Below, piece by piece: positions 8,923 to 13,463 of a stretch of 64,000 bases of DNA. Both the position numbers and the translations under genes were made by a program. Below the pieces are notes generated by a model. The model made no database searches, was not told the DNA's origin, and saw only the letters and a list, made by a program, of their open reading frames with translations. This DNA is from Hungatella effluvii. Its GTDB lineage: Bacteria; Bacillota; Clostridia; Lachnospirales; Lachnospiraceae. Within the stretch, counting starts at the first letter, position 1. Each line of letters starts with the position of its first letter. The stretch lies in NCBI RefSeq assembly GCF_003201875.1, contig NZ_QJKD01000012.1, forward strand, positions 1 through 64,000, in the 5' to 3' direction.

Positions 8923-9928
8923 ACTGTTTTCTGAAATCTATAACTGTTACTTTCTGGTCGTCCGGCGGATTCTGGACGAGGCCGCGGAACACGGGCTGTC
9001 AGAAAGCGACTTAAACCGTATCGCGGATACATACGGCTATGAGGAAAGTGCCCTCGCCATCGTTCCGAAGCTGGTGAGCGGGGAATGGAATTTACTCGTC
9101 AAATCGCCGGAGGGGCCGTCCGGCAAGCCGCTCTTTTTCTCCCGGGTAAAGGCACCGGAGCCGCTGCCGCTGACCGGGCTCCAGCTTTCCTGGCTGAAAG
9201 CAGTCTCCGCTGATCCCAGATTTCGCCTGTTTTTTACTGACGAGGAGTACAGGAAGCTGGATCTTGCATTAAGAAATGTTAAGCCGTTGTTTTATACGGA
9301 GGACTTTTCTTATTTTGACCAGTATTCCGACGGGGACGGGTACGAACTCGATTCATACCGGGAACATTTTCAAGCGATTCTGGAAGGGATCCGAGAGAAC
9401 CGGATCCTGGCCATCGATTACTTTTCGGCAAAAAACCACTTAACTACATTCCGATACCTTCCCTGCCGGCTCGAATACTCTGCCAAGGACGACAAATTCC
9501 GTCTCATGGCAGTCCGGGTTCGGAAGGATGACAGCTTAAGCCGTCTGACTATCCTGAATCTGTCGCGGATCATGCGGATTAAAGACACGGGAAAATCCCT
9601 GGAGATCCGGCCCGATATTGATGCCTGCTTAGAACACTCCCTCTGCCGGGAACCTGTGGTCCTGGAAATATCCAATGAGCGCAATGCGCTGGAACGGACC
9701 ATGCTTCATTTCGCCTGTTACAAGAAACGGACGGAAAAGCTGGGTGACTCCGGTAAGTACCTCTGCCGGATCTATTACAGCAGAGATGTGGAAACGGAGC
9801 TGTTGATACAGATTCTCTCCTTCGGACCGGTGGTAAAGGTGCTGGGGCCGGAAAGCTTTCTGAAACAGGTGAAGGAGCGGGTGGAGAGGCAGCAGCGGCT
9901 GTTTGTGAAAGACTGCAGTAACCCGTAA
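8912..9928 (+). CDS. WYL-domain regulator (WYL plus WCX; C-terminal LSFGPVVKVLGPESF motif), second member of the pair
   Basis: RILAIDYFSAKNHLTTFRYLPCRLEYSAKDDKFRLMAVRVRKDDSLSRLTILNLSRIMRIKDTG fits the WYL strand plus the R-F-R-L-x-R-I block. C-terminal ILSFGPVVKVLGPESFLKQV fits the WCX end. Confidence 0.55.
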   Translation: MESELFSEIYNCYFLVVRRILDEAAEHGLSESDLNRIADTYGYEESALAIVPKLVSGEWNLLVKSPEGPSGKPLFFSRVKAPEPLPLTGLQLSWLKAVSADPRFRLFFTDEEYRKLDLALRNVKPLFYTEDFSYFDQYSDGDGYELDSYREHFQAILEGIRENRILAIDYFSAKNHLTTFRYLPCRLEYSAKDDKFRLMAVRVRKDDSLSRLTILNLSRIMRIKDTGKSLEIRPDIDACLEHSLCREPVVLEISNERNALERTMLHFACYKKRTEKLGDSGKYLCRIYYSRDVETELLIQILSFGPVVKVLGPESFLKQVKERVERQQRLFVKDCSNP

Positions 9929-9976
9929 TGAAATTTTACGCGTTGCGGACAAGATGACCGCACTTACTTTATCTTG

Positions 9977-10033
9977 TCAGGACAGGAAGATCATTTCAGG
10001 ACAGAACGATCGCTTCAGGACAGGAAGATCACT
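9977..10033. repeat. Three tandem 19-bp repeats (tcaggacaggaagatcatt / tcaggacagaacgatcgct / tcaggacaggaagatcact) just downstream of the WYL pair
   Basis: Read directly. Confidence 0.8.
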
Positions 10034-10154
10034 CCCAGCTAAGCGGTCGCAGCCAGCGAAGCTTGTGTTTCGGAAACTTCAACCAGAAACATAATCGAAA
10101 GCTAAATTTAAAAAGGGGCTTGAAAAAAACAAGCCCCCAGTGTATAATTTACTT

Positions 10155-10272
10155 AGAAGTAATCAAAGAGACTGTGATTCGTCTGATGATGTCGCTTCAG
10201 ATATCTAGTGTAATTTTTAGTTACATAGCTATCCTCTATTGCCCTAGAGGATAGCTATTTTCTATTCTGATG
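10155..10272 (+). ncRNA. Candidate antisense antitoxin sRNA, copy 1 (RNA II-like)
   Basis: Near-consensus sigma-A promoter TTGAAA(10120-10125)-17bp-TGTATAAT(10141-10148). Transcript ends at a 12-bp perfect hairpin agctatcctcta/tagaggatagct (10229-10258) followed by ttttctattct. Its 3' ~40 nt are antisense to the end of the toxin ORF. Confidence 0.5.
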
Positions 10273-10338
10273 AAGCTCTATGTAAGTCAGCGCTGCAAAT
10301 ATCACCAGCACTAATGTCAACACTTCAAGTGTATTCAT
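10255..10338 (-). CDS. Type I toxin-like small hydrophobic peptide, 27 aa (MNTLEVLTLVLVIFAALTYIELHQNRK), Fst/PepA1-like architecture
   Basis: RBS AAGGGGG 9 nt upstream of ATG. Single TM helix plus basic tail. Stop codon lies inside the bidirectional terminator hairpin. Own extended -10 promoter TGtATAAT (plus coordinates 10474-10481, minus strand) gives a ~125-nt structured 5' UTR. Minus-strand terminator GGGGCTTG-T7-CAAGCCCC-TTTTT at 10113-10141. Confidence 0.55.
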   Translation of the reverse strand: MNTLEVLTLVLVIFAALTYIELHQNRK

Positions 10339-10727
10339 ATTACATTTCCCCCTTCGCTCATACTCGCGAAAGCAGCAAACCGGATTTTCATAACAGCATT
10401 GCCATCCGGCCGCTGTCCGTGGCATATCCAGCTTCTGAAGGGAATCATCAGGCTATCCTCTGACCTCTATTCAATTATACAGATTTATTTTATCATATCT
10501 CGGAACGCATTACAATAAATAGTTGTGCATAAAACTATTTTATAATGTAACCAAATAAGGGCGCAGGTGGGAAGACAGCTGCTACTGTTTTTCAATCCAC
10601 GCCCGGTGATTTCGCATAATGCGGCTGAATCTTATAGACGTGTGACTTGATTGCATGTCAGCAGAGAATTCTCGTTAGTTTAAAAAAAGGGGCTTGAAAA
10701 AAACAAGCCCCCAGTGTATAATTTACT

Positions 10728-10846
10728 TAGAAGTAATCAAAAAGACAGTCGTTCGTCTGATGATTACGCTTCAGATATCTGGTGAAATTTTTAGTTACAC
10801 AGCTATCCTCTACTGCAATAGAGGATAGCTATTTTCTATTCTGATG
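10728..10846 (+). ncRNA. Candidate antisense antitoxin sRNA, copy 2
   Basis: TTGAAA-17-TGTATAAT promoter (TGTATAAT at 10714-10721); terminator hairpin 10801-10830 plus T-run. Confidence 0.5.
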
Positions 10847-10912
10847 AATCTCTATGTAAGTCAGCGCTGCAAATATCACCAGCACTAATGTCAACACTTC
10901 AAGTGTATTCAT
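10829..10912 (-). CDS. Type I toxin-like peptide, copy 2 (MNTLEVLTLVLVIFAALTYIEIHQNRK; one L-to-I change)
   Basis: Same RBS and frame as copy 1. Upstream extended -10 ttgTATAAAt near 11050 on the minus strand. Confidence 0.55.
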   Translation of the reverse strand: MNTLEVLTLVLVIFAALTYIEIHQNRK

Positions 10913-11170
10913 ATTACATTTCCCCCTTCGCTCATTCTCGCGAAAGCAGCAAACCGGATTTTCATAACAGCATTGCCATCCGGCCGCTGTCCGTGGTATA
11001 TCCAGCTTCTGAGGGGAATCATCAGGCTATCCTCTGACTTCTATGTTAATTTATACAAATTTATTTTATCATATCACGGATCATTTTACAACCATCATGC
11101 GTATTTATAACTCGCATTATATGTCAGGCGATGCCGCCATTCTTCACCGCCTGACACTAGCATAACGTAT

Positions 11171-11234
11171 CATAAGCCCTTGTGCATAGAGTGCCTGATG
11201 CAAATATCAGGCACTCTATGCACAAGGACTTATG
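11171..11234. terminator. Very long perfect hairpin (~27-bp stem: ataagcccttgtgcatagagtgcctgat / atcaggcactctatgcacaaggacttat) 3' of the histidine kinase gene
   Basis: Read directly. Confidence 0.6.
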
Positions 11235-11250
11235 ATACATTATACCAGAT

Positions 11251-12789
11251 CTATCCCTGTTCCCTATAACAATCCAGCGTAAACCAGAACTCCACTCCGC
11301 CTTCCACATTTCTCACTCCACAGGCCTTTCTGTGTGAGTCCATGATCGCCTTCACGATCGACAGCCCGATTCCGCTACCGCCGTATTCCCTCGTATGAGA
11401 CTTATCCACCTTATAGAACTTCGTCCACAGATTGGGGATATCCTCATCCGGGATATTATTTCCTGTGTTAAATACGGTGACGAGAGCTTCCTCCCCGTTG
11501 TCTTCCACAGTGATGACGATCTTTTTCTCGCCGGCCAGATGGTTCAGCGCATTATTCAAATAGTTTGTCACTACCTCTTCGATCTTAAACTCATCCGCGC
11601 ATACGTAAACCGGACCGCAGTCCTCTAAGTGCACCTCCGCTTCCTTCTGCTGAATCAGAATACCTGCGGACGTGATTACTCCGCGGACTAAGTCAGTTAA
11701 GTCAAACCGGTCCATGACCGGGGCGTCGTTGCCAGCCTCCAGCGCTGACAGGGTCAGGAGCTGGCGCACCATCTTATTCATCTTATTGGCCTCATCCATG
11801 ATGACTTCGCAGTAATAATCCCTGCTCTCCGGGTCCTCTGCCATCCCTTCTGTCAAACCTTCCGCGTATCCCTGGATCAGAGCGATCGGCGTCTTCAGCT
11901 CATGGGACACGTTGGCTATGAAATCCTTACGCATCTCATCGACCTTGATCTTTTCCTCAATGTCCTGCTGCAGCTCCGTGTTGGCCGTTCTCAGCTGACC
12001 GATGGTCTCCTTCAGCGTATCGGACAGACGGTTCATGCTGTTCCCCAGCACGCCGATCTCATCCTCCGCCTGGCCTGTGTATTTGGCGTCGAAATCCAGA
12101 TTGGACATCTTCTCCGACAGATTCGCAAGCTGGAGAATCGGGGAGGTGATCTTTTTCGTGGTAAAGTAAATAAACACACTTCCCACAAACAGCGCCGCGA
12201 TTCCCACGTATGCCAGGAAACGGTTGGCCAGATCCACACTCTCCCGGATACTGGCCAGCGGCGTGGACATCAGAAAGATGGTCGCATTATCCGAAAAATA
12301 CCCCCAGCTCTCCAGATAATAAGAATCGGAGCGCTTGTCATACGTCTTCTGGATAAAATAATTGTCGTGGGTCTTTAAAATACTGACCTTGGGCATGTCC
12401 TTGCCAAAGATATACCCCTGAACCCGGCTGGACAAGTAGTCGCGCTCCCCCGTATTGGAGATCAGAACCTGATCGGTGGCGCTGTCCATCAGCACGATGT
12501 TCATATTATATTTTTCACCGAGGACCCGGAACATCTGCTGGACCGGCCCTTCATTTTCACGGTTCGGATCATAGGTGCTCTTAAAATACTCGAATATATC
12601 GGTGCCCTTTTTTTCGGTTTCCGTAACGATCCGGTCGATTCCGTTGTATGCCTTTTCCAGTGTGGCTACCTTGTCCATGGTATAAAAGCTTTCCAGAAAC
12701 CAGTTGTTCACACACCAGGTAGCAATCAGCACGAATGCCATCAGCCCTACGAATACCATGGCAAACCGGGCTTTTATGGAATGTCTCAT
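11251..12789 (-). CDS. Sensor histidine kinase (2 TM, HAMP, HisKA with H-box NVSHELKTP, HATPase_c)
   Basis: H-box and N/G-box motifs; 4-nt overlap with the upstream response regulator. Confidence 0.85.
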   Translation of the reverse strand: MRHSIKARFAMVFVGLMAFVLIATWCVNNWFLESFYTMDKVATLEKAYNGIDRIVTETEKKGTDIFEYFKSTYDPNRENEGPVQQMFRVLGEKYNMNIVLMDSATDQVLISNTGERDYLSSRVQGYIFGKDMPKVSILKTHDNYFIQKTYDKRSDSYYLESWGYFSDNATIFLMSTPLASIRESVDLANRFLAYVGIAALFVGSVFIYFTTKKITSPILQLANLSEKMSNLDFDAKYTGQAEDEIGVLGNSMNRLSDTLKETIGQLRTANTELQQDIEEKIKVDEMRKDFIANVSHELKTPIALIQGYAEGLTEGMAEDPESRDYYCEVIMDEANKMNKMVRQLLTLSALEAGNDAPVMDRFDLTDLVRGVITSAGILIQQKEAEVHLEDCGPVYVCADEFKIEEVVTNYLNNALNHLAGEKKIVITVEDNGEEALVTVFNTGNNIPDEDIPNLWTKFYKVDKSHTREYGGSGIGLSIVKAIMDSHRKACGVRNVEGGVEFWFTLDCYREQG

Positions 12790-13463
12790 TCAGTCACCTC
12801 GAATTTATAGCCCATTCCCCAGATGGTCCTTATATAGTCCCCTTTCTCTCCCATCTTGCTCCGGAGCTTCTTTACATGGGTATCGATCGTCCTCGCATCT
12901 CCGAAGTAATCGTAATTCCACACATTATTAAGAATCTTCTCTCTCGAAAGGGCAATTCCCTGGTTCTCTACAAAATACGTCAGAAGCTCAAATTCCTTAT
13001 AACTCAAATCAATGTTCTGACCGTCGATCGTAACCTGATGCGCCGCCTTATCAATGCGGATTCCTCCGATCTCGATTAAGTCGGAAGAGACGGCGTTGCT
13101 TCTTCGTAAGATCGCTTCCACGCGCGCCACCAGAATCTTCGGGCTGAACGGCTTGGAAATGTATTCGTCCACACCCAGGTTGAAGCCCTGCAGCTCGTCG
13201 CGCTCCTCGCTTCTGGCCGTCAGCATAATGATCGGCACCTGGGAATATTTTCTGATCGTTCTGCATGTCTCCCAGCCATCCATCTTCGGCATCATCACAT
13301 CCAGAATAATCAGTGCAATATCCTTCTGCTCGAAAAACAGATCCACCGCCTCTTCACCGTTGGAAGCCTCGAGCACTGTAAATCCCTTAACACTCAAGAA
13401 ATCCTTTACCAGCTTTCTCATTCTGGCCTCGTCATCTACTACTAATATCTTCAACTGTTCCAT
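12786..13463 (-). CDS. OmpR/PhoB-family response regulator
   Basis: REC domain (ILVVDDE...D..MP) plus winged-helix trans_reg_C. Confidence 0.9.
   Translation of the reverse strand: MEQLKILVVDDEARMRKLVKDFLSVKGFTVLEASNGEEAVDLFFEQKDIALIILDVMMPKMDGWETCRTIRKYSQVPIIMLTARSEERDELQGFNLGVDEYISKPFSPKILVARVEAILRRSNAVSSDLIEIGGIRIDKAAHQVTIDGQNIDLSYKEFELLTYFVENQGIALSREKILNNVWNYDYFGDARTIDTHVKKLRSKMGEKGDYIRTIWGMGYKFEVTE

Follow-up and report, generated by a model that had tools for sequence, protein, structure and literature searches.

The question raised by the locus described here is what is encoded by two nearly identical units lying in tandem in a 1.3-kb gene-free gap of the Hungatella effluvii chromosome. 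The window analysed is the whole stretch of 64,000 nucleotides (nt), positions 1 to 64,000 of contig NZ_QJKD01000012.1, and the gap is flanked by a gene for a WYL-like regulator, ending at 9928, and one for a histidine kinase, ending at 11251. An earlier sequence-only reading took the units for type I toxin-antitoxin modules of the Fst/par kind. The type I part of that reading is well supported by the layout and by comparative evidence, with the encoded peptide as the putative toxin, while the Fst/par part is not. Each unit, of ~410 nt, is probably a type I toxin-antitoxin-like cassette, complete in itself and with an architecture of the bsrG/SR4 class.

The units were placed at 10108-10517 (module 1) and 10682-11093 (module 2) and are 95% identical in a pairwise alignment. 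A repeat scan of the window gave 300 nt at 95% identity with a spacing of 574 nt, and a continuation of 51 nt. The unit borders are sharp, with no similarity outside these coordinates, and the 165-nt spacer between the units (10518-10683) is unique sequence. Each unit reads on the minus strand in the order promoter, leader of ~140 nt, ribosome-binding site (RBS), open reading frame (ORF), hairpin, 3' untranslated region (3'UTR) of ~100 nt and terminator, and contains an antisense gene on the plus strand. The ORF of module 1 (10338..10255) encodes the 27-amino-acid peptide MNTLEVLTLVLVIFAALTYIELHQNRK and that of module 2 (10912..10829) the same peptide with isoleucine instead of leucine at position 22, MNTLEVLTLVLVIFAALTYIEIHQNRK; the general form is MNTLEVLTLVLVIFAALTYIE[L/I]HQNRK. 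The peptide is well below 60 amino acids in length and has hydrophobic residues at positions 4-20, one predicted membrane helix and the charged tail HQNRK. The RBS, or Shine-Dalgarno (SD) sequence, AAGGGGGA (10347..10354 in module 1, 10928..10921 in module 2) is located 8 nt upstream of the start codon.

The predicted toxin promoter is the TG-extended minus-strand sequence TTGTAA-17-TG-n-TAAAAT at 10515..10487 and 11091..11063. Two candidate -10 boxes are found in module 1, TGATAAAAT at 10495..10487 and TGTATAAT at 10481..10474. The toxin terminator has the structure GGGGGCTTG-T7-CAAGCCCC-T5 at 10138..10114 and 10712..10688 (whole features 10108..10138 and 10682..10712), with compensatory changes in the stem. 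It encloses the -35 box of a plus-strand promoter, TTGAAA-17-TATAAT, that matches the consensus at 11 of 12 positions in both units (10120-10148 and 10694-10722). A hairpin lies over each toxin stop codon; it is perfect over 14 base pairs (bp) at 10225-10258 and has 12-15 bp at 10801-10830, and the hairpin pattern occurs twice in the window where none is expected. Only on the plus strand is the hairpin followed by a U-tract (TTTTCT), and only on that strand was it called terminator-like. Since the U-tract is missing on the minus strand, the toxin mRNA probably reads through to 10110.

With transcript ends taken from promoter and terminator, the predicted toxin mRNA of module 1 comprises ~371 nt (10110..10480) and folds at a minimum free energy (MFE) of -130.3 kcal/mol (z = -7.06). 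That of module 2, placed by homology with module 1, comprises ~375 nt (10682..11056). The predicted antitoxin small RNA (sRNA) is ~110 nt long and runs on the plus strand from 10155 to 10268 in module 1 and from 10729 to 10842 in module 2. Both sRNAs fold better than shuffled sequences (z = -3.76 and -4.65, respectively) and the fold is conserved. If the mRNA reads through the stop-codon hairpin, the sRNA of module 1 lies wholly inside the mRNA (10480..10110); because the mRNA then extends to the G+C-rich terminator, the sRNA would be antisense to the whole 3'UTR, over ~110 nt rather than ~40 nt. The sRNA is predicted to be non-coding. A short ORF inside the window sRNA shows no conservation in homologues, and the plus-strand ORFs (63/44 and 22-23 amino acids) were rejected as genes because they either start upstream of the sRNA start or are unconserved in homologues.

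All the elements that the sequence-only reading had listed in the gap were recovered, among them the two tandem modules at ~95% identity, a minus-strand ORF of 27 amino acids in each with a hydrophobic helix and a basic tail, a good RBS, an extended -10 promoter of the toxin's own (beside which the second -10-like box exists), a near-consensus plus-strand promoter, and the embedding of that promoter in the minus-strand terminator. The unit is longer than the ~395 bp it had given. The perfect hairpin containing the stop codon was found as described but, with a U-tract on one strand only, is probably not a bidirectional terminator, and a 3' overlap of ~40 nt between the two RNAs gives way to one that probably includes all ~110 nt of the sRNA.

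Homologues of the peptide beyond the window, the search for which had been suggested earlier, were found in large numbers and with a conserved core. A protein search recovered the core MNTLEVLTLVLVIFAAL in 65 database proteins. As annotated, these have N-terminal extensions that vary from one protein to the next, and the extensions are therefore taken to be miscalled starts and the methionine of MNTLEV to be the true start. When one genome per species was scanned, at least 172 loci with the core MNTLEVLTLVLVIFAAL[TSA]YI.. were obtained. Among the 80 of these that were listed, the hosts are nearly all Lachnospiraceae, and include Enterocloster, [Clostridium] asparagiforme, Roseburia, Butyribacter, Faecalicatena, Blautia, Sporofaciens and many mouse-gut isolates. 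Genomes frequently carry several loci, E. lavalensis at least four. At least three subfamilies with widely different non-coding sequence can be separated. Subfamily A has the peptide tail HQNRK or HHDKK and contains the window modules and those of Enterocloster, subfamily B has the tail NNKKK and is found in Roseburia and Butyribacter, and subfamily C has the tail KHNRK and is found in mouse Lachnospiraceae. Fifteen loci are on viral contigs of IMG/VR, some of them with more divergent peptides such as MNTLEVLTFVLVIFAVLTYLDNHKR.

Residues 1-17 of the peptide are essentially invariant across genera. Over 22 codons the number of variable nucleotide sites is 9, 1 and 18 at codon positions 1, 2 and 3, respectively. 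Between subfamilies 9-13 codon differences are synonymous and 0-2 non-synonymous, which corresponds to a non-synonymous rate (dN) of 0.02-0.09 and a synonymous rate (dS) that is above 1 or saturated. By this substitution pattern the 27-amino-acid ORF is a real gene under strong purifying selection. A metagenome search with a non-coding 23-mer from the 3'UTR gave the same picture, as the ORF is intact in ~38 of 42 assessable loci and the remaining ones are 5' truncations. The units are therefore not copies of a generic intergenic repeat that elsewhere lacks the ORF, a possibility that the sequence-only reading had raised. The exact module 2 peptide is present in seven of the metagenome loci. 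The start codon usage appears to vary within the family, as noted on the metagenome loci L119, L120 and L145: some members have an apparent GTG start just after ATGATG (GTG AGT ACA CTG GAA..., i.e. M/V-STLEV...) and others have the N-terminal variant MDTQNVLTL....

The RNA signals are conserved together with the peptide. The antisense promoter matches the consensus at 9 or more of 12 positions in 54 of 55 distinct modules, and it reads TTGAAA-17-TATAAT without exception in the 15 subfamily-A modules. For the toxin the promoter is weaker, and its TG-extended -10 box is kept in 50 of the 55. In all subfamilies, and in the variants on viral contigs, a convergent promoter is found ~100 nt past the stop codon with its -35 box inside a terminator-like hairpin. 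Likewise the hairpin and U-tract that would terminate the sRNA persist in subfamilies A, B and C even though their sequences differ; in subfamily B the U-tract is the complement of the lysine codons. In two loci from unrelated genomes (L013 ~1610-1660 and L080 ~1605-1660) one and the same foreign sequence, GGTTCTTTCTGAACTTTGGGTATA..., splits the loop of the stop/terminator hairpin; it looks like a mobile element inserting into this hairpin.

The toxin mRNA is predicted to form a long-range helix between its two ends. In an RNAalifold analysis of 14 subfamily-A mRNAs, columns 4-51 pair with columns 286-345, i.e. the entire leader with the 3'UTR, in an interrupted helix of ~41 bp that stops 3 nt short of the terminator. 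In module 1 the 5' arm is at 10432..10480, with the leader's copy of the stop-hairpin arm (10452-10462) and the anti-SD (10443..10436) inside it, and the 3' arm, covered by the sRNA, at 10142..10200; the arms of module 2, by homology, are at ~11056..11006 and ~10774..10716. The 41 pairs are 96-99% paired across the sequences, compared with 37-45% when the partners are slid. Over 24 distinct mRNAs the helix pairs are 99.2% canonical and 12 columns change only through G.U. One compensatory change from GC to AU, 49/288, is exclusive to the two window copies and joins the anti-SD CCUUCAG to CUGAAG in the 3'UTR. In the ensemble, 22-41 leader-3'UTR pairs are expected for subfamily A, 34-44 for B and 16-26 for C. 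Cognate leader-3'UTR duplexes reach -39 to -47 kcal/mol (z = -3.3 to -10.6) and are better than non-cognate combinations of subfamilies. The helix is present in both the MFE and the centroid structure of the window mRNA, and the divergent variants on viral contigs retain its pattern. As modelled, the long-range helix co-varies between subfamilies.

In the DNA the leader matches the 3'UTR in reverse complement, which makes an inverted repeat of ~55-65 nt that includes both -10 boxes. The sRNA, being complementary to the 3'UTR, is consequently similar to the leader over its 5' half, at ~75-85% identity. The inverted repeat probably also explains the second -10-like box, TGTATAAT, which is a poor -10 box in subfamily B and may be the 5' helix strand opposite the sRNA -10 box, possibly transcribed.

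Directly after the 5' helix arm comes an anti-SD sequence (UUCCUUCG in subfamily A, UGCCCUC in B and UUCCC in the window). It is able to pair either with the SD or with a look-alike of the SD in the 3'UTR (CCGAAG in A, GAGGGCA in B and CUGAAG in the window). In the isolated window leader the SD is closed in a UUCCC/GGGGG stem. Binding of the sRNA was imitated in silico by blocking the region of the mRNA that the sRNA covers. In 13 of 15 subfamily-B modules the probability that the SD is unpaired fell from 0.16-0.59 in the free mRNA to 0.01-0.10 with the 3'UTR blocked, and in window copies 1 and 2 it fell from 0.21 and 0.14 to 0.08 and 0.03, respectively. Closure of the SD upon sRNA binding is a prediction of the folding model. 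Between anti-SD and SD both window modules have a structured insertion of ~80 nt (10356-10435 and 10930-11009, minus strand), which is missing from nearly all other subfamily-A modules and was seen in two metagenome proteins (P0001, P0004). The isolated leader with this insertion (10339-10446) folds at z = -3.4. A riboswitch in the long 5' untranslated region (5'UTR) was considered and rejected, because the ~80 nt are a window-type insertion, missing in most homologues, and have no Rfam match. No Rfam match was obtained in the 64-kb window at gathering thresholds, and only chance-level matches in 9900-11300 with E up to 10.

Sequence and comparison together give the following picture. The weak TG-extended promoter would give an mRNA of ~370 nt for the single-helix membrane peptide, and the near-consensus promoter within the mRNA terminator would give the non-coding RNA of ~110 nt that ends at the stop-codon hairpin, in perfect antisense to the final codons and to practically all of the 3'UTR. 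The first ~50 nt of the mRNA are predicted to pair with its own 3'UTR in the long interrupted helix directly before the terminator, and the adjacent anti-SD can close the SD. The further course of events is suggested by analogy to the experimentally probed bsrG/SR4 pair. An abundant sRNA would bind the 3'UTR and out-compete the imperfect 5'-3' helix, upon which the freed leader may refold with the anti-SD closing the SD more tightly. The long perfect duplex would at the same time be a substrate for RNase III, so that both translation and mRNA stability would fall. Were the sRNA lost or outnumbered, the peptide would be made and the cell damaged or arrested.

A number of observations weigh against this reading. 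The transcript ends are inferred from consensus motifs. Within subfamily A there is almost no double compensatory change in the long-range helix, the complementarity of leader and 3'UTR could owe something to a DNA-level inverted repeat, and the transitions in the inverted repeat show only a mild excess of G.U-compatible changes that is not decisive alone. The predicted effect on the SD is modest in the other subfamily-A modules, absent in subfamily C, and missing in two of the 15 subfamily-B modules (L025 and L085). The peptide hits no toxin model above threshold. For the Pfam family Hol_Tox (PF16935), which matches TxpA homologues, the best score was 13.4 bits against a cut-off of 23.3 (E = 0.071, 3 of 16 members), comparable to that of a spurious SPT_ssu-like match, and an hhalign comparison of the window family with a TxpA alignment gave 1.6%. 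Finally, the conservation of the peptide goes far beyond what type I toxins usually show, as judged from the variability of BsrG (PMC6562991). This extreme conservation is the most unusual feature of the family and may point to a role other than that of a toxin.

The alternative that follows from the last point is that the product of the cassette is a small, conserved membrane protein that serves normal physiology, perhaps as a subunit or regulator in a membrane complex, with its level tuned by the antisense RNA, and that there is no functional toxin-antitoxin pair. It would account for 17 first residues that are invariant across genera in spite of saturated synonymous sites, when type I toxins mostly conserve only hydrophobicity (PMC6562991). 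It has a precedent in YhzE-2, which had a type I layout and yet was not toxic (Fozo 2010, PMC2887945), and the chromosomal position of the window locus, between regulators and a two-component system, agrees with it. The distribution of the family, however, is that of type I loci, with several copies per genome in unrelated contexts, a copy number at the same site that varies between strains, and members on viral contigs or beside genes resembling those of conjugative elements. The pairing of a strong antisense with a weak sense promoter, and an SD that is closed, also speak against it; all these features are typically seen in selfish type I loci and would be odd in a housekeeping subunit. The physiological role was therefore considered unlikely.

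The conservation can also be accommodated with a toxin that acts on one specific conserved membrane partner in Lachnospiraceae, which would explain the 17 invariant N-terminal residues despite saturated synonymous sites. Joined to this is the idea that the 5'-3' helix is an activating switch. The SD look-alike in the 3'UTR would then titrate the anti-SD, the mRNA would be translatable only when it is full-length and free of sRNA, and the antitoxin would act chiefly from a distance, through strand displacement. This combination of a specific partner and an activating switch is considered rather unlikely.

The Fst/par kind of mechanism, in which the mRNA ends at the shared hairpin and the sRNA contacts first that hairpin and then a copy of its arm in the leader, blocking translation, is very unlikely to apply. 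The copy itself, GGCTATCCTCT at 10452-10462 (11 nt), is present as the sequence-only reading had stated, but is ~110 nt upstream of the RBS and not near it. Similarity of leader and hairpin arm recurs in the subfamilies (AGAGGATAG / CTATCCTCT in A, AGGATG / CATCCT in B and GGGATAG / CTATCC in C), and the G residues kept in the leader fit the hairpin arm and, by wobble, the 3'UTR. Against these points, a U-tract is missing after the hairpin on the minus strand, and the site of the arm copy is 45-110 nt from the SD. The arm copy is the sole complementarity between sRNA and leader, and its partner in the sRNA is locked in a perfect terminator stem of 12-14 bp. The pairing of the sRNA with the toxin 5'UTR that had been proposed was not borne out, as RNAduplex predicted long but loose duplexes of sRNA with leader and RBS, with energies indistinguishable from those of shuffled sequences (z from -0.8 to -3.7, one positive). 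The arm copy could be a second contact after the terminator stem opens, or part of the long helix via wobble pairs.

Toxin mRNA and sRNA are convergent in par (Fst / RNA II, Enterococcus pAD1) as well, with a hairpin on both strands 3' of the ORF and a peptide of ~30 amino acids with a hydrophobic helix and a charged tail. The direct repeats of par, however, make the 5' ends of the two RNAs complementary. In the window the other shared repeats are inverted at the DNA level, so the 5' half of the sRNA resembles the toxin leader rather than complementing it, and the overlap is ~110 nt and not the terminator only; the DRa/DRb logic that had been invoked is not supported here. The motif APxxxGxxx defines Fst, Lpt and SprA1 (PMC8309996). 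It is lacking in the peptide, since no family member has a proline or glycine in the core. The peptides do not match the Pfam model of Fst, and hhalign against Fst gave 0.35% over 5 aligned columns. Membership in the Fst/par family was rejected on the missing motif and Pro-11, the lack of profile similarity, the inverted repeats and the chance-level sRNA-leader duplex.

That the unit is a non-autonomous mobile or recombinogenic intergenic repeat with inverted-repeat bounds, in which ORF and promoter-like motifs are incidental, would fit the sharp borders, the unique spacer, the ~55-65-nt inverted repeat and the copy number that differs between strains, but it is largely refuted and most improbable given the strong coding signature of the ORF, its intactness in nearly all assessable loci found via a non-coding motif (with only truncations as exceptions), and an inverted repeat that is internal rather than terminal, G.U-rich and co-varying between subfamilies.

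The type I-like cassette of the window is chromosomal, with RtcB, two WYL-like genes, a two-component system, an MFS transporter and a TetR regulator as neighbours. In metagenome contigs syntenic with positions 8000-13000 of the window (flanks 95-98% identical), two modules 574 nt apart are found in L138 and L107, and a single module at the same chromosomal site in L111, L118 and L128. The 165-nt spacer is found only in the two-copy form. The two window copies are consequently a strain-variable duplication at one chromosomal site. Elsewhere the contexts are unrelated. In E. lavalensis a cassette lies between an amino-acid lyase gene and an acetyltransferase gene, and subfamily-C modules adjoin NTP_transf_2 and DUF4316 genes, in a setting that resembles a conjugative element. 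Several subfamily-C loci (L065 35-1176 and others) share a conserved upstream region. In public phage and plasmid records, searched with blastn and tblastn, the family was met on two 'Bacteriophage sp.' scaffolds that lack annotation and on no plasmid. A distribution with multiple copies in varied contexts, some on viral contigs or beside conjugative-element-like genes, is typical of type I loci.

Upstream of the gap, at 5986-9928, a minus-strand gene for an RtcB RNA ligase is divergent from two overlapping plus-strand genes, the first of which (7507-8922) has a WYL domain and the second (8912-9928) no Pfam match. The RtcB and WYL-domain gene set that adjoins the toxin modules may be an RNA-repair regulon. 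Just 3' of the WYL-like gene, a 19-nt unit (TCAGGACAGGAAGATCA + 2 nt) stands in three tandem copies at 9977-10031. This unit behaves like a variable number tandem repeat in the syntenic contigs, with one copy in L138 and four, including variants, in L140. On the other side, a near-perfect palindrome of 92 nt with arms of 43 nt that are 91% complementary directly follows the histidine-kinase stop codon (11157-11248). It is also present in three syntenic contigs (L111, L118, L138), and in contig L115 one palindrome arm abuts a 5'-truncated toxin ORF at the contig end. The microRNA-like Rfam matches in this region are spurious, as they are produced by the palindrome.

The family is previously unannotated but of a well-known, type I-like kind. 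No Rfam, Pfam, NCBIfam or PHROG model covers the peptide or the RNA. Searches of the peptides against Pfam, NCBIfam and PHROGs gave only sub-threshold matches to Hol_Tox and ComI, a profile search of Protein Data Bank sequences gave only a ribosomal protein (E = 1.4), and a literature search for the peptide sequence found no paper that contains it. Type I systems are almost invisible to annotation, and the cassette defines a compact and easily recognised family, some copies of which are on phage-like and conjugative elements. Through it, the stability of elements, stress dormancy or defence against phages could be approached in dominant gut commensals. For the search for a type I toxin with a defined target, the peptide, with its unusual conservation, is a good candidate, and the RNA design of bsrG/SR4, with a 5'-3' helix, a closed SD and an antitoxin that binds the 3' end, is suggested to reach well beyond Bacillus.

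Among known systems, Clostridia other than C. difficile are nearly blank for type I modules (PMC6563280). Those of Clostridioides difficile (CD2517.1-RCd8 and others), often in prophages or next to CRISPR arrays, have toxins of 34-53 amino acids that are unrelated to the window peptide. Outside C. difficile only 'Fst-like' and 'TxpA-like' matches in C. bolteae and C. asparagiforme have been reported (PMC6563280); these may be the window family under a PSI-BLAST label. The T1TAdb paper describes 24 families and never mentions Lachnospiraceae. In hok/Sok and aapA1/IsoA1, as predicted here, distant pairing of the 5' and 3' ends of the mRNA takes part in control. In these Gram-negative families, whose peptides are unrelated to that of the window, the target of the antisense RNA is the 5' region and the mRNA is activated by processing at its 3' end, whereas the window antisense RNA would bind the 3' partner of the helix.

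Nearer in layout is the txpA/RatA class. EF3263, of the TxpA or 'holin-like toxin' family, has an antisense RNA of ~110 nt against its own 3'UTR (PMC2887945), and RatA acts by degradation only, with no conformational change reported (PMC6562991). The window peptide is no demonstrable member of the TxpA family. TxpA was tried as a bridge to known toxins and dropped, since an exhaustive search gave only two relatives and the profile comparison was negative.

The greatest agreement is with bsrG/SR4, and with bsrE/SR5, of Bacillus subtilis prophages. Common to these and, as predicted, to the window cassette are a toxin mRNA of ~300 nt for a membrane peptide of 27-38 amino acids and a convergent antitoxin RNA that pairs with 100 nt or more at the 3' end of the mRNA; all B. 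subtilis type I antitoxins studied bind 100-140 nt there (PMC6562991). Nucleotides 1-35 of bsrG mRNA pair with nucleotides 232-262 in helix P1 and the terminator comes directly after (PMC3834814). Across the two systems ~35-50 nt at the mRNA 5' end pair, in the window by prediction, with the 3'UTR in a long interrupted helix directly before the terminator. The SD of bsrG is in a 4-bp stem; SR4 binds the 3' end, frees nucleotides 1-33 and lengthens the stem to 8 bp, and RNase III cleaves the bsrG/SR4 duplex (PMC3834814). For the window the SD is predicted to lie in a short G+C stem, which binding of the antitoxin may tighten by freeing the 5' arm. The two differ in that bsrG/SR4 has been probed experimentally, while the window cassette is known from sequence and predicted folds. 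The window sRNA is ~110 nt long instead of 180 nt and entirely complementary, its promoter is inside the toxin terminator and its own terminator overlaps the stop codon, the hosts are Lachnospiraceae, and there is no detectable homology of the peptides. On the predicted architecture the closest known match of the window cassette is bsrG/SR4; the layout also fits the txpA/RatA class, but not Fst/par.

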